From Auanema rhodensis (taxonomy: Eukaryota > Animalia > Nematoda), in assembly GCA_964057225.1 (NCBI GenBank), contig OZ059894.1, forward strand, positions 7,440,001 through 7,504,000: a DNA stretch of 64,000 bases. The letters are read 5' to 3'. Below are positions 37,970 to 64,000 of this stretch, piece by piece. The notes under the pieces were generated by a model, which saw nothing but the letters and a program-made list of their open reading frames with translations, was not told where the DNA came from and did no database searches. The position numbers and the translations under genes are program-made. Within the stretch, counting starts at the first letter, position 1, and every line of letters starts with the position of its first letter.

Positions 37970-38338
37970 AAACTTTTGCTTTCTTTTGTTTCAGAAACAG
38001 TTTTGATAAAGCTTTCAGTTTCGGAACATCTCTCAAATCCTTTCTTTGGATAATTTCCGGTAAAAAGGTCTAGGCTTATGGTTACGTTGTTTGGATGCAT
38101 CAGGAATAGACGGCGGATCTCTTGTGAGATGATATTCTAGGAGATAATGTCGATTGGACATTGTTTCTTGGATATATTGTGATAAAAAGCTCCAAGCTTA
38201 TGATTACCGTGTTTGGATGCATCAGGAATAGACGGCAGATCTCTTGTGAGATCATATTCTTGGAGATAATGTCGATTGGACATTGTTTCTTGGATATATT
38301 GTGATAAAAAGGTCCAAGCTTATGATTACGTTGTTCGG

Positions 38339-38704
38339 CGTTCCATTCGGAGACTCTATATATGTAACTGCAGGGTTAGAGCCAGACCGACTAGAGGAAT
38401 GAGGAATGGCACCGCCTTCCCTCATGCCCCTATTCGGGAGTTCGCCCCTTTGCAAGCCCATGGACGGTTTGCATCTAACTTAGTTAATCTTATATATTAG
38501 TCTTTGTCTTGTAAATGTAGTTTACTTTATCCTTGTGTTAATGTATTGTAATGATATTGTATTGTGTATAATAAACCTATATATTTCCTTATCTTATGTA
38601 ATCCTTATGCTCTGTTTCCATACCGCTACACTTATGGAATACTATACGCGTAGTTGAGCAGACTACAATGGTCTGTTCAATATACGTAGGAGCATAATGG
38701 AACG
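38339..38704 (+). repeat. 5' LTR (366 bp)
   Basis: Matches 50044-50409 with no difference seen by eye. Terminal inverted repeat CGTTCCATT...AATGGAACG. AATAAA at 38570-38575. Confidence 0.96.
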
Positions 38705-38717
38705 TGGAGGTTCCACC
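38705..38717 (+). promoter_or_regulatory. Primer-binding site, tRNA-Gln
   Basis: TGGAGGTTCCACC directly abuts the LTR and is complementary to GGTGGAACCT-CCA, the 3' end of metazoan tRNA-Gln. Confidence 0.88.
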
Positions 38718-39687
38718 TCGAACTCATTTTTGTCGCAAAAACTCGCATAAAAAGTCCATATTTTGATATCTAAATTAAAACTTCCTCCACGGTTAGCAAC
38801 ATAATGAGGGCGCCAACTTGTATAAGGTGCAGGTACAAGGGATCTCTCTTTTAGAGAGCTAGGACTACATAATTTTGAAATTTCACCCGCTGTCCCCACT
38901 CATAAAACCGTCTGAGTGTCCACCCTTATAATACCGTATCCTGCACCGCTTCTCTTGCATTTTTTTTTGAGGACGTTTGGATCGAAATAGGGGACAATTT
39001 CACCAAACGAAATTTTGATTACATTATTATTTGGCAACGAGGAGTTAGAATGAAATTTTGAAAGCGCACAAAGTTTAATATTTTATTGTGGTCAGGACTA
39101 GAGATTTGAAAGTTAAATTCAGGCGTAAAAGAGCATGCTAACTAAATATTTTTGCGGGAGCCGTTATTCGGTTTTTATTTTTTTTTTGATTGTGAGAATA
39201 GACCACACTAGTCCGAAAAATCCTGGCACAAATTTTATTGCCTGTCAGGTCATTTTGGCGAAAGCACATGGGCTACGGATGTTTTCTTCTCCGTAGAATG
39301 TGTCACCTTCCTCAGCTCATTTTTGTTGCTAACATCATAAGATATTCCCACACACCTACCGTAGTATTCATATTGTAATATTCTATAAATTAGTAGAATG
39401 GTTTAAAGAAAAAAATTGCGTTTTATAAACGAGCTTTGGTCTCAGTCCATTAGTAAAATGAGCAATCTTTTTAAATATTCTCGGAATCTCATTAGCATGC
39501 CAAAATCATTCCGAAAAAGAATCGCCCACGGCTTTTAATAATAACGTGCACATGAGCCATTTTCCCAAGGCGCACGCACTCCTTCTTTATTAATAAGCTC
39601 GACCAAAGTTTGTGTTATGGAAAAAAAAAAAAAAGAGAGAGAGAACAAATGAGTGAAATTAAGTATTTATTATATATGAAACAATTG

Positions 39688-40221
39688 TTAAAAGCCCCAT
39701 TTAAAATGCAACTGTCTCACAAATTCTATAGGCTGTGAGATGGGCTCATCGCTAGGCTCTAAATACTGCGAATACACCGAATCCGCAGAGGTCCTTAGCA
39801 ATAAGCCCATAGGAGACTGTTCATAAAATAAATAAATTTTAAACAAAATTTTAGACATATAATCATAAAAATCATGAGACTTATGCTCATACCAATTCCA
39901 AGGGGATGCGACCAGATTTGGGTTTTCATACCAATGCGCGCACAAGTCGGTGAGGCACCATCGCCGGATAGCTGCAACCTCATCCGCTATTTCCTGCATT
40001 AGGGAGAAGTTTACTAATCCCCTTCCCAGATAATGCATCTTTAAATCCTCAATAAACTAAAAATTCTTATTAAGATAACATGTTTCTTTGTTTTAACCAA
40101 CCATCTTAATTATGTCTGGGTGCGGCCTATAAGCTAACACTTCGTCTTGATCATACAAGACGAGGTCAGCGTACAGCTTCCTCAAGACAAAAGTCATTCC
40201 CGATAGACCTTCATAAGCCAT
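39688..40221 (-). CDS. Antisense two-exon accessory gene, ~162 aa, unknown function (exon 1 40221-40102, intron 40101-40057, exon 2 40056-39688)
   Basis: ATG at 40221 gives MAYEGLSGMTFVLRKLYADLVLYDQDEVLAYRPHPDIIKM. A 45-nt GTTGGT...TTTTTAG intron with an in-frame TAA joins it in frame to FIEDLK plus the 116-aa ORF 39688..40038. AATAAA on the minus strand at 39666-39671. Confidence 0.72.
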
Positions 40222-40633
40222 TCTTTGATTTATTTTTTTTTTTCAGCTCTACAAATATAAAGATTCTTATGCATAAAAAGGGGACATAAAACGACTGAAA
40301 ATCTCTCTCATACTTTCAAGAATTCAATTAGAGTAAAGTATTAAGATTGAGGCTAGAAAGAGCGAAGACCAAAAAAATTTATAATTGATGAACATCTGTG
40401 AAATAGAATAAAGAAAAGAGAATACGGTAGATAGGCGGAGCCAGATCTCAGGCCAAGATTTTAAAACTCTTTCTCATCTAATAACGATTCTCGGCGAAAG
40501 ACGCCACGTCTCAATCTTCAAACGTTTCTTACTTTTCCTATAACCGACCCGAATTTCTTGTCACTCATTCAACGTCAACATCCCCCATATAACGAAACAC
40601 TCGCGGTTTTTCCGAACCAAGAGTGATTCCAAA

Positions 40634-43600
40634 GTGGCACGAAGATACTCTTCGGCCGTCCCTGCTCTATACCCTTCTGAGTCCAGTGACGACATCGCAG
40701 TCGCCAGTCGAACCAGAAGCCGCACTCGACTCCTCAGTGTTCAGATTGAAGAGCCTGAACAAGAGGTAAAACCCAAAGTCGAGAAAACCTTCATTCCTCG
40801 AGAAGGCACGTATTCACCTCCGGACAACACCGAGGAGGACCCTGATTTCTATATTCAGGACTACAATATTCAAACTTCAGCTTCAACTCCAAAGGTACAC
40901 TCTTTTAAAAGTAATAAAAAGATTCAAAAAATTCAAAAACCAAAACAAATAACCTCTAATACTTCACCAGCCACTCCCCACCTAAACTTATCAACTTTAT
41001 CAGTTAATACTGATAACGATCTTGCATCTTCTTTTGAACTAACTCTAACACCGCAGGCATTTTCCACTCCGATAGAAAACTCACAACTTAATAAAACCTC
41101 ATCTCTCACTATTCGCAAATCACCCTTATCAGTTATCACTGATAAGCTTGATTCGAAAAAGCTTGATTCTAAAAAAATTAATAAAAGAAAAACTAATACA
41201 CCGCGTAGGCGCTCAACCTCTAATAATCCCGTAGAACCAAATCAGGAAATTACCGAAGTTTTGCCCTTATCACTAACTACTGATAAGTTCAAAAGTAAGA
41301 AATCTTTAACAGCTCGCTTAATAAAAGTTTTGAATTTGTCTCCAGGGGAGGTAACAACAGAACAAGTTGATAACTCTCTTCACGTATCCTCCAACCCAAC
41401 CCTTAATAAGTCAGATAGCGCTATACCCAGCTCAAGCGTATCAATACATTCGACGCCTCAGGCAACGAGTCGAATTATCAAACTCCCAGGGAAGCGGTTC
41501 TCCTCAGCCGCCCCTACCATTAGTTATCCAACATCTGGTAACTCGAAAAAGGGAGGTAAGAATTTAACGGCGAGAAGCTCAGGCAGTAAAGGGATTACGT
41601 CATCTCGCACATACCCTGAGGATATACCAACCATGACGGAGACACCACGTCTTCCGGGAGCTGGTAAATCTACCATTGCGCACGCATTAAGCTCACCTTA
41701 TTGCCCCATATACGACGGAAGTCGTAACTTTAGAGATTTCGTGGCAAAGTTTAATACCTTTTCTAACGCCTTAGGCTTAGTGATGCCCGAAAGACTAACT
41801 ATTTTACCATTACTATTGAAAAATGATAGAGCAGAGGAAGCTTATTTAGAGCTACCTGACAAGGTCAGAACTGCTGGACCTTGGGTTACCCTAATAGAAG
41901 AGTTAACATCCAAGCTGTGTCCCGAATACAATCAAGACCCTGCCCTTATCACACTTCAAAACAGCACTCAAGGCGATTTATCAATTGATGGTTTTGCACA
42001 AACGTTAAGAAACCTCAGCTTAAATGCTTTCTCTAATAGTGATACTCATAAAGATCACATTCTGAGGTCCACATTTTTGAGAGGCTTGAAAAATACGATA
42101 CGCCCAGGGGTAATTCGAGCAAAACCCAAAACTTTTGCTGAGGCTGTTGATAGTGCTCGCTGGGAGGAATCAATTGCAAACCAAGTAGCAGACCCTCAGG
42201 CGCTATTGGTTAACGCAATTGAAAGAACTTTCCCCCCGCGCAGAAACAATGGTGGGAGAGGTATGGCAAGAGGTTATCAATCTTTTAATAATAAAAATTA
42301 TCAAAATTATAATAATTATAACAATTATCATCCAAACTTTCAAAACAATCAAAATTATCATAAATTTTCAAAAAATCAAAAAGGCTGGAATTTCCAAAAC
42401 CCATTTGCTAGGAACCGCAATTTTGGTGACCGCGGTCGAAATTATCAGAATCAAAATCAAAATGGGTATCAAAGAAGCCATAATGCATCACAAAATCAAG
42501 AAATGAGCAATAATAGACAGAGAAATAACAGTACCTTTAGGGGAAATAACAACAATAGAGGCAGAGGTAGAGGCTCAAGAGTCAATAATTTGACTCTGAT
42601 ATCTCCTTTGACTTTAGCCGTAGCTTTATCAGTAATCTTATCACTGGTTACAACAGCTGAAGCATACCAGCTATGTACTAAAGCTACTGGAGGAGCCCTT
42701 CTCCGTCCCCCATCTCTCCGAAAATGCTTATTACCACCAATAAAGCATATCTTACGAACAAAAGTTCATCTTTATACAAGGAATCAAACGGCACATGAAT
42801 GGGATGCATGGAGATGCTCCAAAGAAATTCATAAAATGTGTATCAGAGACCTTTTGTTCCTTAGAGATACCAATACAACGATAGCGAGAATTGAAAAGAT
42901 ACCAGCTGCAGAATGCAGACTGGCAGTGAGAGATAGAAGATGGAATTGGAGTGAATTAAAGAAGATCGACAGCATAACATATGCAACTGACGAGCCTTCC
43001 TTCTCGCCAGGCCGATCTTTTAATAATGAACTATGTGAAGAGAAAGCCAGATTGGTTATCGAAAGAGGGGTTATGACACGGATGCCAGATGAAACTATAA
43101 TCTCCAATTTAATACTAAATACTGAAGGATGCTTAGCGCATCATGGAGAATGTGCATCAGATACCTCAATCATCATATGGGAGAAACAGCCTTATGAATA
43201 TCGATGCAACTATATCGACATGAGTGAATATGATGTGATAATTGGAGACGGCATTATTCTGTTACCAACCACTCAATCAGCCCTTGTAATCGATCAAAAA
43301 GAGATACCGAAGCAAATATCTTCTTGTTTTAAACAGCCAATCTTCCACACCACAACTGGCAATTACATTCTCTTACCACAGTACCCAAATGACACCAATA
43401 TCCATGTTTTAATAGAGAGAGAATATAAGAAACTTCCGGCGAAAAGAGATAAAAGAGCAATTGCGGAATGCACGGTTGAATTAAACAAGGAGTGGATACA
43501 AAAACAGGAAGATTTTGAAACTTTAATATTAAATATTTGTCCTTATCCTTTCTTACGACCGGTGATGAGTAATCCTGGTATTTATCAGATAATACCGCTT

Positions 43601-46600
43601 ATAAAGGCCAGACGAGCTGTCAACCCTTCATATTCAATTATTGACTGGGTTTCAGCACATCCCGAGAAGTTTTATTTCTTCTTAAGAAGTCCCGTATCTG
43701 ATAAATCCATACAACGTTTCCTTCAAACATACGAAATACACGACCCTGAGGAAGCAATACTTTATTTTCTTGCGCAAAAGGAACTGGCAGCAACCACTCG
43801 CGGCGCTATACGGTATTTAACCTCACAACAATTATTAGAACAGATAGGTGACAGATTAACAGCACACGAATTTGACGAAAAACTGCTAGAAAAAGACGGA
43901 TCCTACCGTGAAAGAGCCGAAAGCATAGCGATGGAGTTAGCTTATACACCGGTAATATTTGAAAACAATCTGTCGGTACCATCAAGGCAAGAGGTTTTAA
44001 AATCCTTTGTGAACATGCCGCCGATCCGACCAACTCTAACAACTGACAATGCTGATGAGCGTATAGTACTTAGAAACACTCTTTACTTATACCATAACTT
44101 GATGACATTGCGAGTAATAAGGCCAAATAAAACAGCAGCAGCCGTAGATGATGAAAAGTTCCGACAATTAACAATCAATGTGCCAGATACCAACAAATTA
44201 TATCGAGATAAAGATTCTAACTACGGTATATCGATAGGGCCCCACCCTCGCATTCAAAACCCAAGCGCAGATACACGCCAGCTACTTATAAAAACATTTT
44301 TACCACTGTTAGAGGATATTGAAACACCGCCTTATCTGACTAGAAGACTGTCATTAACGACAACAACGGACAAACCCGCTTCACTAGTTCAGGAGACAAC
44401 TAAAAGCCATACGACTCGGATTCCGACGACAACCACAGTTGAGACGACAACAGCCGCGATAACTACGACTCTCTCGCCAACAACATTAGCAACAGTCACT
44501 GACACGGCGTCACGAATCTTAAGGAAACAAAGAACATCATCTCCACCCGTAGAAACCAGAGAAATTCAGGCTCAGGCAACGTATACAGCGTCAAAAGTGA
44601 ACAACGAAATACAATTCAACCTCAACGTATCTCGCAGAATAGCTCAAGATCATCTACAATATACAACAACACTCATACAAGAAGAGCTACAGAAACATTT
44701 CATGGAATCTTATGAATCCATATGTGAGATTCAAAATAGATACCTCGAGCTATGGCGTTCTATTTTACACATAGAACCTACAATAGCAATGAGGACTATT
44801 TTAGGAAGAGAGGATATTGCAGCCCGTTTCGTAGGCAGCGATATAGTTCATGTTCATATATGCCTACCTCTTCAACCTAAAGCTGTTTATCATAATCATA
44901 AGATCAATGATACATGCTATTTGGAAACACCAGTAATAACAGAAGATGAGAGATTATATTTTGCTGCTCCAGGATCAAGAGACTTATTAACACATGGAAA
45001 AGAGATAGATTGCGAACATGTACCCACAGATGTATACTATCAAAATGGAGAATGGATAAATATAAATGGATCGGTTGAAGTAAAACCAATATCACTCTTT
45101 GATAAAGCGCAATACCACCAATTAACACCTTTAAAGTTCACAGGCGCTAACTTATACACCAATTTATCATTGAGAGTTTACTCAATGTCAACAGCTATTG
45201 CATATGGAGCAAGTTTAGCATCCATACGACAGAACCATGTTTTACATACTATTCACAACGATCCAAAAATTACGTCCGCCTTTAATCTTTTGAAAAAGGG
45301 CAGTGACTATATCTCTAAAGCAGCTGAGTTCACAACTTCCGCCTGGACTAGCGTAAAGCAATTTCTAATAGGATCAATTGAGAGAACACTCATCTTCATA
45401 GGATCAATGGTTACGATTGCCGCAGTATTAATAATTCTTTTCGTTGTTGCTAAATTTTGGTTCTTCAGAGCCACTCCACTAACCGTAATGCATGTCCACG
45501 AAATAGATAATGAGCCCCCAAGCTATGAAGAAACATTGGAACTTGTAAGCCGCCCAGACCAACAGATGCCAGATAACATCATGAAGCAATACTATCCTGC
45601 TTTAGTAACATTTATTCCAATCGCAATACCATTTGTTGCTTCTATTGTATCAGCGGAAACAAAGTTACCATTAATATATATATCAGTTGAAGATAAACTG
45701 ATTTTAGCTTTATGGGATTCAGGCTCATCAGTGTCATATGTTAGGCTCTCCACCCTCAAATATCTGAACATGGCCGAAAATGTCAAGAAGAGACATTTAG
45801 TAGCGATGGCAGCCAACAAGTCCACTTTCACATTTTATGGAAAGATAAATCTTGTAATTGAAATTGCCGGTTACGAGATCGAACACACCTTTTTGGTCTC
45901 AAACGATCATGACTGTCCTGCTCCCGCTTTAATTGGACTAGATTTCATGAAAGCGCTTGACAGCGAAAACATCGACGTCAGCCTTAAACCATCCAAGAAG
46001 AGGTTGGAGATTGGAAACAATGCCATCCCATTAATAGGAAACGAATCTATTAAGCATACGGAGATAACTGTGAATATCATTAATTTAAGAACAAAAACAT
46101 TAAAGCCTGATGAAGAGGCACCTATCCCAATAAAGACAGATAAACCACTAGAATCTAACGAAGTGGTTGTCTTAGGGGATAGTGGAAGCGCATTAAAATC
46201 ATTATATCCAACTGCGTTTCGTGATACCAGTGGAGTATATGTTATGTTCCGTAACAATACCGATGAAACAATAGCTATGGAAGCTAATTCAGTCATCGGA
46301 CAGGCAATAATTGGAGAAATTCCGGCTTGTGAACCCTTTAAGCATAAGCCAATTCTACCATATGTTCCGCCAGAGGCCGATTGGGAGAGTAAACTACCAT
46401 ATTTTCCAAGAGACTTCATAAAAGATCTTGATCTAGAGAATGCTGATCTCACGAAAGAAGAAAAACATGAGCTTACAAAAATAATTGAAAGCCATCGTGA
46501 GGCATTTCTTAACGAGGACAGGAAAATAGGCTTATTTAAAGGTCCTATAGAGCATACCATACCATTGAGAACAGATATGGATATGCCAAAGCCGAGAATA

Positions 46601-49339
46601 ACACGTATTCCCTTAGGAAAACAGGAAGAAATTGAAAAACAAGTCAAAGAAATGCTTGAGCAAGGCATAATAGAGCCTTCTACATCTCTATTTAATAGCC
46701 CTGTAGTACTAGTTAAGAAGAAAGATGACACGTATAGGTTTGTGACAGATTTTCGAGCTTTAAATAATGTCACACGCAAGCAAACTTATGTCATTCCAAG
46801 CATTTCTGACATAGTTGATTTGGCAGCAGGCGCCCAATTTTTCTCAAACTTCGATTTAGTGTCAGGATTTTTTCAAATATCCTTGAGAAAATCAGATCGA
46901 CCACTAACAGCATTTACGACCACATCCGGCACATACCAGTACAAACGGATGCCGATGGGCCTTTGTGGAGCCCCTCATACCTTTCAAACAGCAGTAAGGT
47001 ATTTGCAAAGTAAATGTTCTTGTAAACTATTTGTTTATTTGGACGATCTATTAGTTATATCTGATACAAGAGAACAACATCTCAAAGATATCGATGATTT
47101 ACTGCAAGCAGTAGAAGAATTGGGAATGAAGATAAAGCTTAAGAAATGCGCTTTTGCTCAACCAGAAGTGAAATTTCTAGGACTTATTGTAGGACGTCAA
47201 GGTATAAAACCTGACCCTCAAAAAGTCGCCGCCATACAAGATTATCCGGCACCAAAGAATGCAACAGGTGTACGAGCATTCTTGGGAATGGTTGGATTCT
47301 TTCGCAAATTCATGAAAGATTTTGCACGTATCGCAAGCCCTTTATACGATCTGACAAAGGCAGATACTGAATTCAAATGGGAAAACAAACATCAAGAAGC
47401 TTTAGACCTCCTTAAAAGAAGTTTAATACAGGCACCCGTTTTAAGCCCACCTAAATCGGACCGCTTGTTTATAGTTGAAAGCGACGGTAGTAACATCGCC
47501 ATAGGTGCTGTATTATTACAACCGGAAGATCCAAAACAACCTCTGAAAAATCTACACCCTATCGCATTTGCAAGCAGAAAACTAGTTAAAGCCGAACGTA
47601 ACTACGCACCAATCGAGATAGAAGCATTAGGCCTTGTATATGCATTAAATCAATTCCGTACATACATTCTTGGAACTCATACTATATGTATTACGGACCA
47701 TCGACCTCTTACCAGCTTAATGACACGCAGAGACTTATTTGGTCGTCTTGCGAAGTTCCAGCTGGTCATCCAAGAATATGATATTGAAATAAAATATCGC
47801 GCAGGCCAATTAAATAAAGTATGCGATGCTCTATCTCGATATATAGGTGAAGAAGCTAACGATGCTAAGCCGGAAACAAAGAAGAAGAAAATGGAAGAAA
47901 TTCACATTAACGCCATAAATACACCAACAATAAAGGAAATTCAACTAAGCACCCCTTGGATTAAACGGACGATAGCGGAGATTGAATATAGAGCACAAAA
48001 GAACATGACAGCTAATGACAGATATTGTGTCATAAATGACTTGCTCTATACAAAACCAACAGACAAAAAGCCACAACCCGCTATCGTAATACCACAAGAA
48101 CACCCCATAATTGAGGAAATAATCAAAGTTTTTCATGAGGATCCTACAATTGCAGCACATCAAGGAATTATTAAAACAAAAGAAGCAATTCTAAGAAGAT
48201 TCTATTGGACAAATATGCAGAACGACATTACTATATTCATCAAGAACTGCATTAAATGTGCTCAAAGAAAAAAAGATCCACATTCCATGACGGTACAACC
48301 AATAGGTCATTTTGAGATACCAAGCAAGCCATTTGAACGAGTCCACATGGACGTAATGGGACCATTTCCCCCTTCAAAAAGAAACTGTACCTACGTCATT
48401 ACCATGCAAGACGCATTTACAAAATGGTCAACAACAATTGCTGTACCACAAATAACAACGGAAATCACAATTGATCGATTTCTAAGACATTTCGTTTACA
48501 TTTTTGGACCACCCCATCGCTTGATCACCGATAGAGGTTCAAACTTTGTATCTAAAAAGTTCGAAGAAATGTGTACTAAACTTGGAATCAAACATGAACC
48601 AACACTACCACACCAAAAGAACTCAAATGGACAAGTGGAAAGACTTCACCGAACCCTCGAAGAAGGATTAACCCACTACTTAAAAGAGGACCTTAGTGAC
48701 TGGGATACTGTATTACCAAAAATCACTTTTGCTATTAACAATATTCAGCACGCGACTACAGGGATTGCGCCATACATTGCATTATTCGGTAAAGAATGCA
48801 GAATGTCAATGGACGCTGAATTACCAGAAACGATCACCAAAATTCAAGAAATTTCTGAAGAATTACTCCAAAGAAGACCAGATATGGACAAGAGAGACGA
48901 AATAATAAAGAACCGCATAGCTAAAAATCAAGAAAATGCGAAAAAGAAGAAAGATAGAACGCAAAGAGCACACCATAGAGACATTCAACCGGGCGACATG
49001 GTGATGACGACTATAAAATCACACCAAATCGGCCAAAAGCTTCGGAAAAGCTATGATGGACCATGCGAAGTCATCAACGTAGAAGGATCAAAAGTTCAAA
49101 TCAGAAATTCATCAGGAAAACTACAAGATATCCACAAAGATAACTTGAAAATCTTCTCTCCTGCTTCACAAAACATCTCTTACAACACTCGCGCAAGGTT
49201 TCGAGAAAGTCAAGCAGAAGAAGATAGCGACATCGAAATAATAGAAGTGATCAACAGGAACAACAAGGATAGCATAGATACAGAGCCAGAAGATGAAAAT
49301 GAAGACGAAATATGGCTTCCGAGGAATGAAGAAGAATAA
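40634..49339 (+). CDS. Gag-Env-Pol polyprotein (2901 aa from GTG; frame open from 40544; first ATG at 41633)
   Basis: One uninterrupted ORF containing capsid-like Gag, an N/Q/RG-rich region, a signal peptide, a Cys-rich glycoprotein, a TM helix, aspartic protease (LWDSGS), RT (YLDD), RNase H (ESDGS, EIEALG, TDHRPL) and integrase (HHCC, D-D-E, YDGPC). Confidence 0.95.
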   Translation: MARRYSSAVPALYPSESSDDIAVASRTRSRTRLLSVQIEEPEQEVKPKVEKTFIPREGTYSPPDNTEEDPDFYIQDYNIQTSASTPKVHSFKSNKKIQKIQKPKQITSNTSPATPHLNLSTLSVNTDNDLASSFELTLTPQAFSTPIENSQLNKTSSLTIRKSPLSVITDKLDSKKLDSKKINKRKTNTPRRRSTSNNPVEPNQEITEVLPLSLTTDKFKSKKSLTARLIKVLNLSPGEVTTEQVDNSLHVSSNPTLNKSDSAIPSSSVSIHSTPQATSRIIKLPGKRFSSAAPTISYPTSGNSKKGGKNLTARSSGSKGITSSRTYPEDIPTMTETPRLPGAGKSTIAHALSSPYCPIYDGSRNFRDFVAKFNTFSNALGLVMPERLTILPLLLKNDRAEEAYLELPDKVRTAGPWVTLIEELTSKLCPEYNQDPALITLQNSTQGDLSIDGFAQTLRNLSLNAFSNSDTHKDHILRSTFLRGLKNTIRPGVIRAKPKTFAEAVDSARWEESIANQVADPQALLVNAIERTFPPRRNNGGRGMARGYQSFNNKNYQNYNNYNNYHPNFQNNQNYHKFSKNQKGWNFQNPFARNRNFGDRGRNYQNQNQNGYQRSHNASQNQEMSNNRQRNNSTFRGNNNNRGRGRGSRVNNLTLISPLTLAVALSVILSLVTTAEAYQLCTKATGGALLRPPSLRKCLLPPIKHILRTKVHLYTRNQTAHEWDAWRCSKEIHKMCIRDLLFLRDTNTTIARIEKIPAAECRLAVRDRRWNWSELKKIDSITYATDEPSFSPGRSFNNELCEEKARLVIERGVMTRMPDETIISNLILNTEGCLAHHGECASDTSIIIWEKQPYEYRCNYIDMSEYDVIIGDGIILLPTTQSALVIDQKEIPKQISSCFKQPIFHTTTGNYILLPQYPNDTNIHVLIEREYKKLPAKRDKRAIAECTVELNKEWIQKQEDFETLILNICPYPFLRPVMSNPGIYQIIPLIKARRAVNPSYSIIDWVSAHPEKFYFFLRSPVSDKSIQRFLQTYEIHDPEEAILYFLAQKELAATTRGAIRYLTSQQLLEQIGDRLTAHEFDEKLLEKDGSYRERAESIAMELAYTPVIFENNLSVPSRQEVLKSFVNMPPIRPTLTTDNADERIVLRNTLYLYHNLMTLRVIRPNKTAAAVDDEKFRQLTINVPDTNKLYRDKDSNYGISIGPHPRIQNPSADTRQLLIKTFLPLLEDIETPPYLTRRLSLTTTTDKPASLVQETTKSHTTRIPTTTTVETTTAAITTTLSPTTLATVTDTASRILRKQRTSSPPVETREIQAQATYTASKVNNEIQFNLNVSRRIAQDHLQYTTTLIQEELQKHFMESYESICEIQNRYLELWRSILHIEPTIAMRTILGREDIAARFVGSDIVHVHICLPLQPKAVYHNHKINDTCYLETPVITEDERLYFAAPGSRDLLTHGKEIDCEHVPTDVYYQNGEWININGSVEVKPISLFDKAQYHQLTPLKFTGANLYTNLSLRVYSMSTAIAYGASLASIRQNHVLHTIHNDPKITSAFNLLKKGSDYISKAAEFTTSAWTSVKQFLIGSIERTLIFIGSMVTIAAVLIILFVVAKFWFFRATPLTVMHVHEIDNEPPSYEETLELVSRPDQQMPDNIMKQYYPALVTFIPIAIPFVASIVSAETKLPLIYISVEDKLILALWDSGSSVSYVRLSTLKYLNMAENVKKRHLVAMAANKSTFTFYGKINLVIEIAGYEIEHTFLVSNDHDCPAPALIGLDFMKALDSENIDVSLKPSKKRLEIGNNAIPLIGNESIKHTEITVNIINLRTKTLKPDEEAPIPIKTDKPLESNEVVVLGDSGSALKSLYPTAFRDTSGVYVMFRNNTDETIAMEANSVIGQAIIGEIPACEPFKHKPILPYVPPEADWESKLPYFPRDFIKDLDLENADLTKEEKHELTKIIESHREAFLNEDRKIGLFKGPIEHTIPLRTDMDMPKPRITRIPLGKQEEIEKQVKEMLEQGIIEPSTSLFNSPVVLVKKKDDTYRFVTDFRALNNVTRKQTYVIPSISDIVDLAAGAQFFSNFDLVSGFFQISLRKSDRPLTAFTTTSGTYQYKRMPMGLCGAPHTFQTAVRYLQSKCSCKLFVYLDDLLVISDTREQHLKDIDDLLQAVEELGMKIKLKKCAFAQPEVKFLGLIVGRQGIKPDPQKVAAIQDYPAPKNATGVRAFLGMVGFFRKFMKDFARIASPLYDLTKADTEFKWENKHQEALDLLKRSLIQAPVLSPPKSDRLFIVESDGSNIAIGAVLLQPEDPKQPLKNLHPIAFASRKLVKAERNYAPIEIEALGLVYALNQFRTYILGTHTICITDHRPLTSLMTRRDLFGRLAKFQLVIQEYDIEIKYRAGQLNKVCDALSRYIGEEANDAKPETKKKKMEEIHINAINTPTIKEIQLSTPWIKRTIAEIEYRAQKNMTANDRYCVINDLLYTKPTDKKPQPAIVIPQEHPIIEEIIKVFHEDPTIAAHQGIIKTKEAILRRFYWTNMQNDITIFIKNCIKCAQRKKDPHSMTVQPIGHFEIPSKPFERVHMDVMGPFPPSKRNCTYVITMQDAFTKWSTTIAVPQITTEITIDRFLRHFVYIFGPPHRLITDRGSNFVSKKFEEMCTKLGIKHEPTLPHQKNSNGQVERLHRTLEEGLTHYLKEDLSDWDTVLPKITFAINNIQHATTGIAPYIALFGKECRMSMDAELPETITKIQEISEELLQRRPDMDKRDEIIKNRIAKNQENAKKKKDRTQRAHHRDIQPGDMVMTTIKSHQIGQKLRKSYDGPCEVINVEGSKVQIRNSSGKLQDIHKDNLKIFSPASQNISYNTRARFRESQAEEDSDIEIIEVINRNNKDSIDTEPEDENEDEIWLPRNEEE
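41633..42580 (+). other. gag: Gag domain: capsid-like region plus N/Q/RG-rich basic tail, no zinc knuckle
   Basis: PIYDGSRNFRDFVAKF, MHR-like QGDLSIDGFAQTLR, FLRGLK...PKTFAEAV; followed by NNYNNYHPNFQNN...RGRGRG. Confidence 0.8.
42590..45466 (+). other. env: Envelope-like glycoprotein domain (class III fusogen, gB-like)
   Basis: Signal peptide LTLISPLTLAVALSVILSLVTTAEA|YQLC, many Cys and N-x-S/T sequons, furin-type KRDKR (43442-43456), gB-like core CEIQNRYLELW...GREDIAARFVGSDIVHVHIC...CY (44723-44920), TM LIFIGSMVTIAAVLIILFVVAKFWFF (45389-45466). Confidence 0.85.
45660..49339 (+). other. pol: Pol domains PR-RT-RNase H-IN
   Basis: DSG at 45716; YLDD at 47036-47047; RNase H from ~47470; integrase HHCC from ~48134 with catalytic D/D/E near 48350/48530/48638; GPY/F-like motif near 49051; acidic tail, no chromodomain seen. 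Start boundary is approximate. Confidence 0.95.
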
Positions 49340-50032
49340 CAACAAGATAATGCTACGTTATTTAAATTATTGTAACAAAATAACGATGAATTAAAAAAAA
49401 AAAAAAAAATTAATGCTAAATAACATTCAAAATAAAAATAGCATTTAATAGAGATTGAGAAAGGAAAAATAAGGCAAATTCTAAACGAGGAGATGTTATG
49501 ACTAATGGTTCCAAGTTACCGTAATCCTATGCGGACTAGAGGACATTTTGACAACCATCCGAGCTCCATGTGCCTCTCCAAATAAGATGAGATGAACACT
49601 GGTAGGCGTATCAACCACAATTTCATCTTAAGTGGTAGTCTCCATTAGTAATCAAGGATTCACTCTGGGAGACATATGGAGACACATTATTAAATCATAA
49701 TCTCGGTTCAATTTAGAAATGAGTACTTCTTGAGACCATTAGTCAAAATAATAACATATTCCCATTCATTACTAGCCCCTTTATTCTACAATCTCTATTA
49801 GGAAATGCTTGAATATTAAGATAATTAATTTATGAAATTAATAATATTCTAATTCATCGTCCCTTCATATTATATTGAACCCTTCTTATAAATTATTGTA
49901 ATTTTGTTTGTATACTAACTAAAACTCTATCATACTATAGTTATTGTGAAGCTAAAACAATTGAACTCTAAAACTCAGTTACATATAAGCCCAAATTTTT
50001 GTTTAAAATATCGCGAGGTCGCGACAATCTTT

Positions 50033-50041
50033 GAAAAAGGG
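50033..50041 (+). promoter_or_regulatory. Polypurine tract
   Basis: GAAAAAGGG, separated from the 3' LTR by the dinucleotide CA. Confidence 0.75.
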
Positions 50042-50043
50042 CA

Positions 50044-50409
50044 CGTTCCATTCGGAGACTCTATATATGTAACTGCAGGGTTAGAGCCAGACCGACTAGA
50101 GGAATGAGGAATGGCACCGCCTTCCCTCATGCCCCTATTCGGGAGTTCGCCCCTTTGCAAGCCCATGGACGGTTTGCATCTAACTTAGTTAATCTTATAT
50201 ATTAGTCTTTGTCTTGTAAATGTAGTTTACTTTATCCTTGTGTTAATGTATTGTAATGATATTGTATTGTGTATAATAAACCTATATATTTCCTTATCTT
50301 ATGTAATCCTTATGCTCTGTTTCCATACCGCTACACTTATGGAATACTATACGCGTAGTTGAGCAGACTACAATGGTCTGTTCAATATACGTAGGAGCAT
50401 AATGGAACG
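50044..50409 (+). repeat. 3' LTR (366 bp)
   Basis: Direct repeat of 38339-38704; AATAAA at 50275-50280. Confidence 0.96.
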
Positions 50410-50469
50410 TCGGATGCATCAGGAATAGACGGCGGATCTCTTGTGAGATGATATTCTGGAAGTTAATGT

Positions 50470-50541
50470 GGCCGAATGGTCTAGGGGTATGATTCTCGCT
50501 TTGGGTGCGAGAGGTCCCGGGTTCAAATCCCGGTTCGGCCC
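50470..50541 (+). tRNA. tRNA-Pro(TGG), first copy after the LTR element
   Basis: Canonical 72-nt copy starting ~60 bp after the 3' LTR. Confidence 0.95.
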
Positions 50542-52228
50542 AAAATTTTGCTTTCTTTTGTTTCAGAAACAGTTTTGATAAAGCTTTCAGTTTCGGAACT
50601 TCTCTCAAATCCTTTCATTGGATATATTCTGGTAAAAAGGTCTAGGCTTATGGTTACTTTTTTTGGATGCATAAGGGATAGACGGCGTTCTCTTGTGAGA
50701 TGTTATTCTGGGAGATAATGTGGCCGAATGGTCTAGGGGTATGATTCTCGCTTTGGGTGCGAGAGGTCCCGGGTTCAAATCCCGGTTCGGCCCAAAATTT
50801 TGCTTTCTTTTGTTTCAGAAACAGTTTTGATAAAGCTTTCAGTTTCGGAACTTCTCTCAAATCCTTTCATTGGATATATTCTGGTAAAAAGGTCTAGGCT
50901 TATGGTTACGTTGTTTGGATGCATCAGGAATAGACGGCGGATCTCTTGTGAGATCATATTCTAGGAGATAATGTGGCCGAATGGTCTAGGGGTATGATTC
51001 TCGCTTTGGGTGCGAGAGGTCCCGGGTTCAAATCCCGGTTCGGCCCAAACTTTTGCTTTCTTTTGTTTCAGAAACAGTTTTGATAAAGCTTTCAGTTTCG
51101 GAACATCTCTCAAATCCTTTCTTTGGATAATTTCCGGTAAAAAGGTCTAGGCTTATGGTTACTTTGTTTGGATGCATAAGGGATAGACGGCGTTCTCTTG
51201 TGAGATGTTATTCTGGGAGAAAATGTGGCCGAATGGTCTAGGGGTATGATTCTCGCTTTGGGTGCGAGAGGTCCCGGGTTCAAATCCCGGTTCGGCCCAA
51301 AATTTTGCTTTCTTTTGTTTCAGAAACAGTTTTGATAAAGCTTTCAGTTTCGGAACTTCTCTCAAATCCTTTCATTGGATATATTCTGGTAAAAAGGTCT
51401 AGGCTTATGGTTACGTTGTTTGGATGCATCAGGAATAGACGGCGGATCTCTTGTGAGATCATATTCTAGGAGATAATGTGGCCGAATGGTCTAGGGGTAT
51501 GATTCTCGCTTTGGGTGCGAGAGGTCCCGGGTTCAAATCCCGGTTCGGCCCAAAATTTTGCTTTCTTTTGTTTCAGAAACAGTTTTGATAAAGCTTTCAG
51601 TTTCGGAACTTCTCTCAAATCCTTTCATTGGATATATTCTGGTAAAAAGGTCTAGGCTTATGGTTACTTTGTTTGGATGCATAAGGGATAGACGGCGTTC
51701 TCTTGTGAGATGTTATTCTGGGAGATAATGTGGCCGAATGGTCTAGGGGTATGATTCTCGCTTTGGGTGCGAGAGGTCCCGGGTTCAAATCCCGGTTCGG
51801 CCCAAAATTTTGCTTTCTTTTGTTTCAGAAACAGTTTTGATAAAGCTTTCAGTTTCGGAACTTCTCTCAAATCCTTTCATTGGATAAATTCTGGTAAAAA
51901 GGTCTAGGCTTATGGTTACTTTGTTTGGATGCATCAGGAATAGACGGCGGATCTCTTGTGAGATGATATACTTTGAGATAATGTCGATTGGACATTGTTT
52001 CTTGGATATATTGTGATAAAAAGCTCCAAGCTTATGATTACCGTGTTTGGATGCATCAGGAATAGACGGCAGATCTCTTGTGAGATCATATTCTAGGAGA
52101 TAATGTCGATTGGACATTGTTTCTTGGATATATTGTGATAAAAAGGTCCAAGCTTACGATTACGTTGTTTGGATGCATAAGGGATAGACGGCGGATCTCT
52201 TGTGAGATGATATTCTAGGAGATAATGT

Positions 52229-52300
52229 TGTCGAATGGTCTAGGGGTATGATTCTCGCTTTGGGTGCGAGAGGTCCCGGGTTCAAATTCCGGTTCGGCTC
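52229..52300 (+). pseudogene. Degenerate tRNA-Pro copy
   Basis: TGTCGAA 5' end, C61T in the B box (AAATTCCGG) and TTCGGCTC 3' end. Confidence 0.7.
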
Positions 52301-54225
52301 AAAATTTTGCTTTCTTTTGTTTCAGAAACAGTTTTGATAAAGCTTTCAGTTTCGGAACTTCTCTCAAATCCTTTCATTGGATATATTCTGGTAAAAAAGT
52401 CTAGGCTTATGGTTACTTTGTTTGGATGCATAAGGAATAGACGGCGTTCTCTTGTGAGATGATATTCTAGGAGATAATGTGGCCGAATGGTCTAGGGGTA
52501 TGATTCTCGCTTTGGGTGCGAGAGGTCCCGGGTTCAAATCCCGGTTCGGCCCAAAATTTTGCTTTCTTTTGTTTCAGAAACAGTTTTGATAAAGCTTTCA
52601 GTTTCGGAACTTCTCTCAAATCCTTTCTTTGGATAATTTCCGGTAAAAAGGTATAGGCTTATGGTTACGTTGTTTGGATGCATCAGGAATAGACGGCGGA
52701 TCTCTTGTGAGATGATATTCTAGGAGATAATGTGGCCGAATGGTCTAGGGGTATGATTCTCGCTTTGGGTGCGAGAGGTCCCGGGTTCAAATCCCGGTTC
52801 GGCCCAAAATTTTGCTTTCTTTTGTTTCAGAAACAGTTTTGATAAAGCTTTCAGTTTCGGAACTTCTCTCAAATCCTTTCATTGGATAATTTCCGGTAAA
52901 AAGGTCTAGGCTTATGGTTACGTTGTTTGGATGCATCAGGAATAGACGGCAGATCTCTTGTGAGATCATATTCTAGGAGATAATGTCGATTGGACATTGT
53001 TTCTTTGGATAATTTCCGGTAAAAAGCTCCAAGCTTATGATTACCGTGTTTGGATGCATCAGGAATAGACGGCAGATCTCTTGTGAGATCATATTCCAGG
53101 AGATAATGTCGATTGGACATTGTTTCTTGGATATATTATGATAAAAAGGTCCAAGCTTATGATTACGTTGTTCGGATGCATCAGGAATCGACGGCGGATC
53201 TCTTGTGAGATGATATTCTGCGAGATAATGTGGCCGAATGGTCTAGGGGTATGATTCTCGCTTTGGGTGCGAGAGGTCCCGGGTTCAAATCCCGGTTCGG
53301 CCCAAACTTTTGCTTTCTTTTGTTTCAGAAACAGTTTTGATAAAGCTTTCAGTTTCGGAACTTCACTCAAATCCTTTCATTGGATATATTCTGGTAAAAA
53401 GCTCTAGGCTTATGGTTACTTTGTTTGGATGCATCAGGAATCGACGGCGGATCTCTTGTGAGATGATATTCTGGGAGATAATGTCGATTGGACATTGTTT
53501 CTTGGATATATTGTGATAAAAAGGTCCAAGCTTATGATTACCGTGTTTGGATGCATCAGGAATAGACGGCAGATCTCTTGTGAGATCATATTCTAGGAGA
53601 TTATGTCGATTGGACATTGTTTCTTGGATATATTGTGATAAAAAGGTCCAAGCTTATGATTACGTTGTTCGGATGCATCAGGAATCGACGGCGGATCTCT
53701 TGTGAGATGATATTCTGCGAGATAATGTGGCCGAATGGTCTAGGGGTATGATTCTCGCTTTGGGTGCGAGAGGTCCCGGGTTCAAATCCCGGTTCGGCCC
53801 AAACTTTTGCTTTCTTTTGTTTCAGAAACAGTTTTGATAAAGCTTTCAGTTTCGGAACATCTCTCAAATCCTTTCTTTGGATAATTTCCGGTAAAAAGGT
53901 ATAGGCTTATGGTTTCGTTGTTTGGATGCATCAGGAATAGACGGCGGATCTCTTGTGAGATGATATTCTAGGAGATAATGTCGATTGGACATTGTTTCTT
54001 GGATATATTGTGATAAAAAGCTCCAAGCTTATGATTACCGTGTTTGGATGCATCAGGAATAGACGGCAGATCTCTTGTGAGATCATATTCTAGGAGTTAA
54101 TGTCGATTGGACATTGTTTCTTGGATATATTGTGATAAAAAGCTCCAAGCTTATGATTACCGTGTTTGGATGCATCAGGAATAGACGGCGGATCTCTTGT
54201 GAGATGATATTCTAGGAGATAATGT

Positions 54226-54297
54226 TGCCGAATGGTCTAGGGGTATGATTCTCGCTTTGGGTGCGAGAGGTCCCGGGTTCAAATTCCGGTTCGGCCC
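54226..54297 (+). pseudogene. Variant tRNA-Pro, G1T plus C61T (also at 57340, 59459, 62703)
   Basis: TGCCGAA...GGTTCAAATTCCGG. Confidence 0.6.
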
Positions 54298-57200
54298 AAA
54301 ATTTTGCTTTCTTTTGTTTCAGAAACAGTTTTGATAAAGCTTTTAGTTTCGGAACTTCTCTGAAATCCTTTCATTGGATATATTCTGGTAAAAAGGTCTA
54401 GGCTTATGGTTACGTTGTTTGGATGCATCAGGAATAGACGGCGGATCTCTTGTGAGATCATATTCTAGGAGATAACGTGGCCGAATGGTCTAGGGGTATG
54501 ATTCTCGCTTTGGGTGCGAGAGGTCCCGGGTTCAAATCCCGGTTCGGCCCAAACTTTTACTTTCTTTTGTTTCAGAAACAGTTTTGATAAAGCTTTCAGT
54601 TTCGGAACTTCTCTCAAATCCTTTCATTGGATATATTCTGGTAAAAAGGTCTAGGCTTATGGTTACTTTGTTTGGATGCATCAGGAATAGACGGCAGATC
54701 TCTTGTGAGATCACATTCTAGGAGATGATGTCGATTGGACATTGTTTCTTGGATATATTGTGATAGAAAGCTCCAAGCTTATGATTACCGTTTTTGGATG
54801 CATCAGGAATAGACGGCAGATCTCTTGTGAGATCATATTCTAGGAGATAATGTCGATTGGACATTGTTTCTTGGATATATTGTGATAAAAAGGTCCAAGC
54901 TTATGATTACGTTGTTTGGATGCATAAGGGATAGACGGCAGATCTCTTGTGAGATCATATTCCAGGAGATAATGTGGCCGAATGGTCTAGGGGTATGATT
55001 CTCGCTTTGGGTGCGAGAGGTCCCGGGTTCAAATCCCGGTTCGGCCCAAAATTTTGCTTTCTTTTGTTTCACAAAAAGTTTTGATAAAGCTTTCAGTTTC
55101 GGAACTTCTCTCAAATCCTTTCATTGGATATATTCTGGTAAAAAGGTCTAGGCTTATGGTTGCGTTGTTTGGATGCATCAGGAATAGACGGCGGATCTCT
55201 TGTGAGATGATATTCTAGGAGATAATGTCGATTGGACATTGTTTCTTGGATATATTGTGATAAAAAACTCCAAGCTTATGATTACCGTGTTTGGATGCAT
55301 CAGGAATAGACGGCAGATCTCTTGTGAGATCATATTCTAGGAGATAATGTGGCCGAATGGTCTAGGGGTATGATTCTCGCTTTGGGTGCGAGAGGTCCCG
55401 GGTTCAAATCCCGGTTCGGCCCAAACTTTTGCTTTCTTTTGTTTCAGAAACAGTTTTGATAAAGCTTTCAGTTTCGGAACTTCACTCAAATCCTTTCATT
55501 GGATATATTCTGGTAAAAAGCTCTAGGCTTATGGTTACTTTGTTTGGATGCATCAGGAATCGACGGCGGATCTCTTGTGAGATGATATTCTGGGAGATAA
55601 TGTCGATTGGACATTGTTTCTTGGATATATTGTGATAAAAAGGTCCAAGCTTATGATTACCGTGTTTGGATGCATCAGGAATAGACGGCAGATCTCTTGT
55701 GAGATCATATTCTAGGAGATTATGTCGATTGGACATTGTTTCTTGGATATATTGTGATAAAAAACTCCAAGCTTATGATTACCGTGTTTGGATGCATCAG
55801 GAATAGACGGCAGATCTCTTGTGAGATCATATTCTAGGAGATAATGTGGCCGAATGGTCTAGGGGTATGATTCTCGCTTTGGGTGCGAGAGGTCCCGGGT
55901 TCAAATCCCGGTTCGGCCCAAACTTTTGCTTTCTTTTGTTTCAGAAACAGTTTTGATAAAGCTTTCAGTTTCGGAACATCTCTCAAATCCTTTCATTGGA
56001 TAATTTCCGGTAAAAAGGTCTAGGCTTATGGTTACGTTGTTTGGATGCATCAGGAATAGACGGCAGATCTCTTGTGAGATCATATTCTAGGAGATAATGT
56101 CGATTGGACATTGTTTCTTTGGATAATTTCCGGTAAAAAGCTCCAAGCTTATGATTACCGTGTTTGGATGCATCAGGAATAGACGGCAGATCTCTTGTGA
56201 GATCATATTCCAGGAGATAATGTCGATTGGACATTGTTTCTTGGATATATTATGATAAAAAGGTCCAAGCTTATGATTACGTTGTTCGGATGCATCAGGA
56301 ATCGACGGCGGATCTCTTGTGAGATGATATTCTGCGAGATAATGTGGCCGAATGGTCTAGGGGTATGATTCTCGCTTTGGGTGCGAGAGGTCCCGGGTTC
56401 AAATCCCGGTTCGGCCCAAACTTTTGCTTTCTTTTGTTTCAGAAACAGTTTTGATAAAGCTTTCAGTTTCGGAACTTCACTCAAATCCTTTCATTGGATA
56501 TATTCTGGTAAAAAGCTCTAGGCTTATGGTTACTTTGTTTGGATGCATCAGGAATCGACGGCGGATCTCTTGTGAGATGATATTCTGGGAGATAATGTCG
56601 ATTGGACATTGTTTCTTGGATATATTGTGATAAAAAGGTCCAAGCTTATGATTACCGTGTTTGGATGCATCAGGAATAGACGGCAGATCTCTTGTGAGAT
56701 CATATTCTAGGAGATTATGTCGATTGGACATTGTTTCTTGGATATATTGTGATAAAAAGGTCCAAGCTTATGATTACGTTGTTCGGATGCATCAGGAATC
56801 GACGGCGGATCTCTTGTGAGATGATATTCTGCGAGATAATGTGGCCGAATGGTCTAGGGGTATGATTCTCGCTTTGGGTGCGAGAGGTCCCGGGTTCAAA
56901 TCCCGGTTCGGCCCAAACTTTTGCTTTCTTTTGTTTCAGAAACAGTTTTGATAAAGCTTTCAGTTTCGGAACATCTCTCAAATCCTTTCTTTGGATAATT
57001 TCCGGTAAAAAGGTATAGGCTTATGGTTTCGTTGTTTGGATGCATCAGGAATAGACGGCGGATCTCTTGTGAGATGATATTCTAGGAGATAATGTCGATT
57101 GGACATTGTTTCTTGGATATATTGTGATAAAAAGCTCCAAGCTTATGATTACCGTGTTTGGATGCATCAGGAATAGACGGCAGATCTCTTGTGAGATCAT

Positions 57201-62955: not shown

Positions 62956-63027
62956 GGCCGAATGGTCTAGGGGTATGATTCTCGCTTTGGGTGCGAGAGG
63001 TCCCGGGTTCAAATCCCGGTTCGGCCC
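62956..63027 (+). tRNA. tRNA-Pro(TGG), last copy in the window
   Basis: Canonical 72-nt copy. Confidence 0.95.
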
Positions 63028-63232
63028 AAACTTTTACTTTCTTTTGTTTCAGAAACAGTTTTGATAAAGCTTTCAGTTTCGGAACTTCTCTCAAATCCTT
63101 TCATTGGATATATTCTGGTAAAAAGGTCTAGGCTTATGGTTACTTTGTTTGGATGCATCAGGAATAGACGGCAGATCTCTTGTGAGATCACATTCTAGGA
63201 GATGATGTCGATTGGACATTGTTTCTTGGATA

Positions 63233-64000
63233 TGTCACATCTGCTAGCACATGGTAAACATGTGCGCGCTATTCAAATAGCGGGAGCCTGAACAAGCCCC
63301 GCCTACAACATGGGACACACATGGCACTCTTGCTTCTGGCCTAACCCAGATAGGTTGTCTTATAGCCATGTGAGTCTCATCTCTATATCATCTATATATA
63401 TACTCTATTTAATACTTTATTATATCTCTTTATATTCTTTCTTAATGTAATTCTTATATTGTATTTTCTTGTTATCTGATAATGAATCTTTTTCTCTTTA
63501 AGTATTTGTCTTAATAAGGAAATCGGGGCGTTCGGGTCTGCCTACCTAAGGAACAAGGTAGAAGTACATATATCTTCCGACCATGAAAAGACGGGAAGAA
63601 ACAATATGTAACGTGGAGGTTCCACCTTGCTTACTTTACTGTTAATTTATTGACAGCAAGTTTACGAGACTTTTGGACTTAATTACCCAACAGTGAGGAG
63701 TAACCGAGCCGTGCACCATGATTTCCCCAAAAATTATTTTGGCTACCACTTCTCCTCCGCTCAACGAAAACTGGGAGGTGTCTGAGACGTTTGGGGAAAC
63801 TATCAGACAATAGTTTTGACGAGCGTTACCTTTTTGTTATGCACGCGCGTGCTATTTTGATTCATTACTTTATGATGTGAATGTCCAGTGTGGCAACAGA
63901 GCTCACTTTTTAGCTGAGTTGTTTGGAAGCTGGAGGCTGTTGGGATAATTTTATTTACGATTTATTAATTTTGATTCACATCCAAGGGTTCATCAGGGTT
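63233..64000 (+). mobile_element. 5' end of a second LTR retroelement (putative 5' LTR 63233-63613, then leader; truncated by the window)
   Basis: The array breaks abruptly inside a 122-bp unit at TGTCACAT. The segment ends ATGTAACG (imperfect inverted repeat) and is immediately followed by the same PBS as element 1. Confidence 0.85.
63614..63626 (+). promoter_or_regulatory. Primer-binding site, tRNA-Gln (element 2)
   Basis: TGGAGGTTCCACC, identical to 38705-38717. Confidence 0.85.

Follow-up and report, generated by a model that had tools for sequence, protein, structure and literature searches.

An intact Ty3/gypsy metavirus of Auanema rhodensis with a predicted gB-like envelope between Gag and Pol in a single reading frame

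The nematode endogenous retroviruses (NERV) of Sacco et al. (J Gen Virol, 2022) reportedly have one continuous gag-env-pro-pol open reading frame (ORF), and are said to encode an RNA-virus-like glycoprotein and extra ORFs, including one for a small hypothetical protein. By that account, the single frame, and perhaps the small gene, are already in print. Here, we describe a 12,071-nt Ty3/gypsy element with the gene order gag-env-pol in the nematode Auanema rhodensis. The window analysed is the 64,000-nt stretch at positions 7,440,001 to 7,504,000 of the forward strand of contig OZ059894.1 (GenBank assembly GCA_964057225.1), and the element is the only interruption of the tRNA-Pro(TGG) tandem array that spans it. 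All positions given below are those of the window.

Elements of this layout have been surveyed by Chary and Hayashi (eLife 2026, PMC13524379). In the passages of that paper compared here, gB-type ENV is the only type present in the errantiviruses of Nematoda, Bryozoa, and Platyhelminthes, which have the order GAG-ENV-POL, the nematode case ("flipped order") is credited to Sacco et al. 2022, and env largely co-diverges with pol and the hosts, consistent with vertical descent. Its table gives 36 nematode elements, 8 of them with a tRNA-Gln primer site, and the 12-mer Gln_UUG_CUG of two Caenorhabditis elements is the exact reverse complement of the primer site of our element. The words "polyprotein," "fused," "in-frame," "single ORF," and "frameshift" are absent from the main text, so processing is not discussed there under those terms. 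In the corresponding passages of Merchant 2022 (PMC9094657), Tas has a gB-like env, as the initial annotation of the window had stated, and Atlas virus (Belpaoviridae) has a single Gag-Pol-Env polyprotein. The passages compared of PMC5408684 and bioRxiv 10.64898/2026.03.22.711591 contributed nothing specific. The element is real and intact and belongs to a group already in print, with a known layout, and the novelty implied by the initial annotation is not supported, given the GAG-ENV-POL gypsy elements with gB-type env that PMC13524379 describes, in the passages compared, from nematodes, bryozoans, and flatworms. What is added here is a sided pattern of protease-like motifs, a predicted helical insert in the envelope, a putative spliced antisense gene, and a 363-codon ATG-free extension.

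One frame from Gag to integrase with an internal envelope

A single stop-free frame of 2931 codons extends from 40544 to 49339 on the plus strand (amino acid (aa) numbering starts there). Pfam matches and hydropathy place along it, in order, a capsid, a signal peptide, a class III gB-like envelope, a membrane anchor, and the protease (PR), reverse transcriptase (RT), RNase H (RH), and integrase (IN). The proposal that an internal signal, a Cys-rich ectodomain, and an anchor lie between Gag and the protease without a stop or frameshift was borne out by this frame, by hydropathy, and by contigs from DNA sequencing runs. Gag (41633..42580, plus strand) consists of a capsid-like domain followed by an Asn/Gln/Arg/Gly-rich basic region without a zinc knuckle; the Ty3_capsid match after the first Met (aa 364) was weak (E 0.003, below the cut-off), and the N-terminal domain of Gag is homologous in the relatives described below.

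Pol (45656..49339, plus strand), assigned with Pfam, comprises an aspartic protease with DSG at aa 1725, an RT with the motif YLDD, an RNase H, and an integrase, and the PR-RT-RH-IN order, YxDD RT, and gypsy-type RNase H are all present. The marks of BEL/Pao elements (a YVDN RT, Peptidase_A17/DUF1759, and a 3′ env) are lacking, the RT being YLDD and Pfam giving no such matches, unlike in three relatives (P0055, P0096, and P0101), in which Peptidase_A17/DUF1759-type matches are present. In an RT tree of 27 rows, composed of env-bearing relatives with named metaviruses and env-less gypsy references left out, the element joined P0009 and P0024 (100/99; identity, 59% and 55%) and lay among 21 env-pol YxDD rows, which were split from the six YxDN (BEL/Pao-type) rows at 100/100. 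The YLDD motif and the domain order uphold the assignment to the gypsy type rather than BEL/Pao.

The continuity of the frame was also seen outside the assembly. In four DNA runs from three studies, all 30 bins were covered, and none of the five indels listed fell inside the frame. Single contigs join gag to env in X4 (41471-43884) and X7 (38695-43884), and overlapping contigs in three DNA runs, with pieces from 45522 on, cover the env-to-pol linker. Of the 40 variants listed (of 60) in the DNA runs, 34 lie in the frame, comprising 23 synonymous changes, 10 non-synonymous changes, and 1 stop. Two joints in the DNA runs, 41148-41633 and 43848-44996, had short sides (31 and 23 letters) and were not trusted. 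The stop-free frame, the absence of listed indels within it, and the identical long terminal repeats (LTRs) agree with the earlier description of the element as intact. Near-complete copies occur in runs (X1-X11) under five organism labels. Horizontal transfer, which these labels might suggest, is unsupported: three runs with other labels also carry the tRNA-array spacer, which makes mixed samples or labels likelier than host jumping.

The sole full-length match in a word search was a protein of Auanema sp. JU1783, P0001, which has the gag-env-pol order in one chain, is 46% identical over the envelope region, and also has the helical insert, the furin site, PPSY, and the pre-signal motif; unlike the element, P0001 is a partial, unannotated record, and its insert is somewhat longer. 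A word search for a longer protein gave no match, and related-locus scans of viral and metagenome contigs gave no relative. A profile-free search returned 293 proteins at E ≤ 0.001, 150 of which, together with P0001, make up the 151 relatives used here. Domain probes divided these into 16 gag-env-pol, 35 env-pol, 10 gag-env, 4 pol-env, and 86 env-only proteins, the last including BEL/Pao proteins whose RT escaped the probe. The same gene order in one chain, which the initial annotation had suggested looking for in nematode genomes, is found by these probes in 16 of the 151 relatives, all of them predicted proteins. An RRM domain separates gag from env in one of P0041 and P0013, and in the other env is followed by two protease and two integrase zinc-finger matches.

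The envelope, initially placed at 42590..45660, starts at approximately 42581 if the signal is counted, or at 42665 in its mature form, and ends at approximately 45463; the remainder (45464-45660) is cytosolic linker. A protease-site-like motif, VNNL, and the internal signal peptide occupy 42581..42664 (plus strand, like all envelope features), with a signal-like hydrophobic stretch at aa 680-707 that ends in AEA|YQLC; in 54 of 66 cases, a hydrophobic stretch lies ahead of the envelope. The N-terminal half (42665..43423) is beta-rich, contains 10 conserved Cys, and likely corresponds to class III domains I/II. It is followed by the furin site RDKR (aa 968-971; 43445..43456), a motif enriched in the equivalent loop of the relatives, and, beyond the insert described below, by a Thr-rich mucin-like stretch (44351..44533) that ends in the basic site RILRKQR. 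Of the furin-type sites originally proposed, RDKR is the one strict site, whereas KARR, RVIR, and RILRKQR are looser basic sites. The C-terminal half (44591..45343), recognised with Pfam, the PDB, AlphaFold, and Foldseek, has a long helix and a beta crown resembling gB domain III/IV, and hydropathy places the transmembrane anchor at about aa 1617-1640 (45392..45463). The cytosolic linker (45464..45655) contains the protease-site-like motif VHEI, PPSY, YPxL, and a proline-containing hydrophobic stretch. The ectodomain (aa 708 to approximately 1610) has 16 Cys, 14 of which are conserved in most aligned relatives (44/64 to 60/61); the other two are those in the insert.

The gB domain III/IV pattern that had been proposed for the segment EIQFNLN...CYLETP (from aa 1355) was recovered by sequence comparison. 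The segment matched Pfam Monjiviricetes_fusion above the cut-off (E 5.7e-15) and Glycoprotein_B at E 6.4e-9 (36 bits, under the 43-bit cut-off), and all 43 matches in a PDB sequence search at E ≤ 1 were to herpesvirus gB, the best (E 2.5e-4) being on this segment. An AlphaFold monomer model of the envelope, built from 102 sequences, had a mean predicted local distance difference test score (pLDDT) of 70.5 and a predicted TM-score (pTM) of 0.53, with a pLDDT of approximately 90 in the N-terminal 240 residues, the long helix, and the crown. The fold comparison called for earlier, with AlphaFold and Foldseek, gave domain-level matches to gB chains in the PDB from E 2.7e-11, and to rhabdo-like, nyami-, chu-, and herpesvirus glycoproteins in BFVD from E 1.2e-15. 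A class III gB-like fold is thus supported for the predicted envelope.

Membrane threading, processing, and alternative readings

We favour, at a probability of roughly 80%, the reading that this is an intact, likely recent Ty3/gypsy metavirus that encodes in one frame a gB-like envelope, placed after the capsid and before the protease, with a polyprotein that likely threads the membrane of the endoplasmic reticulum (ER) once. We infer a topology in which Gag and Pol lie outside the ER and Env lies inside. Gag would be synthesised in the cytosol; the internal signal sequence would then direct the envelope into the lumen, where signal peptidase would free its N-terminus, and the anchor would halt transfer, leaving the tail and Pol to be made in the cytosol. 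A furin cut at aa 971, and perhaps another near aa 1330, would loosen or release the helical insert, while the viral protease would cut V/I-N-A-I-like motifs at the border of Gag and the signal stub, directly after the anchor, and within Pol. Until these cuts are made, the signal stub would hold Gag, and the envelope anchor would hold Pol, on the Env-bearing membrane, so that particles would bud with the fusogen.

The ER threading and processing proposed in the initial annotation gain indirect support from motifs that are specific to one side of the membrane. The protease-like motif [VI][NHS][ASNTGE][ILV] occurs at six places in the 2931 aa of the element, four of which are at domain borders (556, 680, 1651, and 2455), giving exact candidate cut sites. 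When the motif was counted in the relatives, excluding the element and P0001, and compared with 1000 shuffles, it was enriched in the capsid-to-signal linker (23 vs. 4.0 shuffled, maximum 10; 25 segments), in the anchor-to-protease linker (35 vs. 5.3, maximum 14; 39 segments), and in the RNase H-integrase linker (11 vs. 3.1, maximum 10; 19 segments). The luminal loop (11 vs. 7.8; 68 segments), the two ectodomain halves (10 vs. 8.2 and 10 vs. 9.6), and the RT core (8 vs. 5.5) showed no enrichment of the motif. The furin motif was enriched in the luminal loop of the relatives (33 vs. 6.8). Such sidedness would be expected from cleavage by the viral protease in the cytosol and by furin in the lumen.

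Several observations weigh against this reading. The protease-like motif was defined post hoc, once the element and its relatives had been inspected, and counts from related sequences are not independent; the relatives are, moreover, predicted proteins, seen at the protein level only. In the envelope model, 274 of 900 residues have a pLDDT < 50, and the global TM-scores to gB are 0.16-0.18 by query (0.16-0.25 over the Foldseek matches), with a root-mean-square deviation (rmsd) of approximately 25 Å, indicating that the fold match holds at the level of domains and not of the whole trimer. A second hydrophobic stretch, at aa 1683-1706, could be read as an extra membrane segment; it was not counted as one because it contains two prolines in the element and because only 3 of 19 chains, the element included, have a pre-protease stretch above the threshold. 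PPxY was found in 2 of 41 tails, within the shuffle range, and PPSY is common to the element and P0001 alone. PPxY and YPxL were accordingly rejected as family-wide late domains (2/41 and 4/41, both within the shuffle range). The late-domain-like motif P[ST]AP is absent from the element itself, but 4 of 41 relatives (P0009, P0042, P0046, and P0061) have it in the linker from anchor to protease, more than the shuffles would predict (mean 0.29, maximum 2).

The strongest alternative, which we place only a little short of an even chance, accepts that the envelope is folded and selected but assigns it to transfer from soma to germ line within the animal, or to membrane tethering, rather than to infection between animals. 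The co-divergence of env with pol and hosts described in PMC13524379 fits this account, and the tRNA-array spacer shared by three other-label DNA runs leaves no sign of host jumping, whereas the conserved Cys, the furin loop, the anchor, and a fast-changing Thr-rich stretch (6/6 variants non-synonymous) would suit an exposed viral surface protein. A less probable account, which we regard as unlikely, is that the frame is continuous in the DNA but that spliced or internally started RNAs set the levels of Gag, Env, and Pol, so that the full polyprotein is rare and the ratio not equimolar. It is favoured by the 2.9-kb leader with 24 ATGs before the first usable in-frame ATG, by a plus-strand TTTTCAG acceptor at 40240-40246, and by the clear use of splicing on the opposite strand of the element. 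On the other hand, protease-like motifs border the envelope on each cytosolic side, as expected for excision from a polyprotein, and no joint other than the antisense intron described below is listed in four putative RNA runs. The RNA nature of these four runs is our guess, none of the listed runs being recorded as RNA; their contig cover was uneven and was not used, as contigs cannot rank parts of the element. The env-skipping splices whose search the initial annotation had proposed were not among the joints listed in these runs (low-depth contigs from one study). Nothing was found in favour of a misassembly or a nested insertion as the source of a viral glycoprotein within a gag-pol element, and this reading can practically be dismissed, because independent DNA contigs bridge gag and env, overlapping contigs in three runs cover env-pol, and P0001 and 15 further relatives share the one-chain order.

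Envelope insert, 5′ leader, and integration site

The loop between the furin site and the long helix comprises 425 residues in the element; it has 20-70 in most relatives and >150 in 23 of 75. Much of it is an alpha-helical insert domain of approximately 300 aa with no recognised fold (43457..44350, plus strand), for which a model from nine sequences predicted a compact domain (pLDDT 76.7, pTM 0.75). Homologues of residues 972-1269 were found in 8 of the 151 relatives at E < 0.01. The domain had no Atlas match, no PDB profile match, and no BFVD Foldseek match at E ≤ 0.001, and these blank searches do not establish a new fold. Death domains (best VIA Z 4.4, 63 residues, rmsd 3.5) were rejected as a common match. 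Among the 40 variants listed of the 60 in the DNA runs, 11 of 13 in the insert were synonymous and 6 of 6 in the Thr-rich stretch were non-synonymous, so that the insert looks constrained and the mucin-like stretch variable. The insert may serve in receptor binding or shielding. A bolder reading, more doubtful even than the RNA-processing account, is that it was captured, has a new helical fold, is cleaved by host proteases at either end, and takes the part of herpesvirus gH/gL as a subunit for receptor binding or triggering, and that, with a self-regulating spliced antisense accessory gene and a non-AUG long Gag, it makes the element a "complex" enveloped metavirus of nematodes.

Upstream of the first ATG, the frame is open for 363 Ser/Thr/Pro/Lys-rich codons (40544..41632, plus strand), a possible non-AUG or splice-fed extension of Gag. 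The other two frames of this interval contain 15 and 40 stops, ATG is absent from all plus-strand frames from 40389 to 41632, and only 0.12% of codon shuffles had no ATG. The sequence would suit non-AUG initiation combined with leaky scanning to 41633, or else an exon further upstream. In one DNA run, codon 3 of the frame is a stop, which would place any start further down. The protein records of several relatives start at the Met equivalent to 41633.

On the minus strand of the leader, a putative gene comprises exon 1 (40102..40221; ATG at 40221, 40 codons, phase-0 junction), a 45-nt GT-AG intron (40057..40101), and exon 2 (39688..40056; 122 codons and a stop, with AATAAA approximately 17 nt past it); a TTTTCAG acceptor-like site lies at 40301-40295, 80 nt upstream of the ATG. 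The 40056-40102 joint was seen in three of the four putative RNA runs, all from one study, and in none of the four DNA runs; contigs across the intron site are listed for three of the DNA runs, all without the joint. Unspliced, the frame ends after 42 codons, whereas the spliced product has 162 aa. A 122-codon open stretch arose in 3% of shuffled leaders, and the sole indel listed in the antisense region, an insertion of 7 nt found in one DNA run, lies within the intron. Exon 2 alone (the spliced protein itself was not searched) had no Pfam match and no homologue, and its best Atlas score, 0.76, was taken as noise. The gene likely encodes a 162-aa accessory protein, as predicted from the reading frame, and we would guess at a role in regulating the element or host silencing. 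Plant Retand elements reportedly carry antisense ORFs (PMC11963269).

The hallmarks of Metaviridae, namely LTRs, a primer-binding site, a polypurine tract, and a short target duplication, are all present, here on the plus strand. The 5′ LTR (38339..38704) and 3′ LTR (50044..50409) are identical, each of 366 nt, and their ends (38339-38347 and 50401-50409) form a 9-nt inverted repeat with CG...CG rather than TG...CA termini. The primer-binding site (38705..38716) is of the tRNA-Gln type, matching a 12-mer in supplementary file 1 of PMC13524379, and the polypurine tract lies at 50030..50043. The Gln primer site, the 45-nt intron, and the TTTCAG-type acceptors would suit a nematode host, and the nearest named protein comes from Auanema. 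A 4-nt target-site duplication, TCGG (38335..38338 on the left and 50410-50413 on the right), places the insertion in a spacer of the tRNA-Pro(TGG) array; the element is intact and was likely inserted recently. ARAGORN found 138 tRNA-Pro(TGG) genes in the window, and the array (1-38334 and 50414-64000) consists of units of approximately 122-125, 252, 375, and 497 nt with higher-order repeats. An Rfam search of the element found nothing. In several runs, contigs agree with the element only over 38684-38731, at the LTR end and primer site, and differ beyond it, which suggests that the host has a second, related family of elements; short matches of this kind also occur at 38965-39010 and 49631-49683.

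Comparison with known systems

The element offers a clean, intact, and apparently transcribed example for asking by what route an envelope internal to a retroelement polyprotein is threaded and cleaved, and whether elements of this kind pass from cell to cell. With herpesvirus gB and the glycoproteins of negative-strand RNA viruses (nyami-, chu-, and rhabdo-like), its envelope has class III pieces and the domain III/IV pattern in common; unlike these, it has approximately 10% identity to them, carries approximately 380 extra residues in the furin loop, and is encoded within a retroelement polyprotein. Atlas virus and Tas, in the passages of PMC9094657 compared, are likewise nematode elements, the former with a single polyprotein and the latter with a gB-like env, but both have a BEL/Pao RT (YVDN), and the Atlas virus env is C-terminal and of class II. 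NERV, as represented in the parts of PMC13524379 that mention it, is also a metavirus with env between gag and pol. In the compared text of the same paper, figures and sequences being outside the comparison, neither an antisense gene nor a helical insert nor LTRs with CG ends were found to be mentioned. The insert domain and antisense gene, if functional, would add more complexity than is found in the published descriptions compared. In the passages on the "ancient errantiviruses" of PMC13524379, these share with the element the gene order, a gB-type env between a signal and an anchor, a Ty3/gypsy Pol, a similar LTR length, and a tRNA-Gln site.

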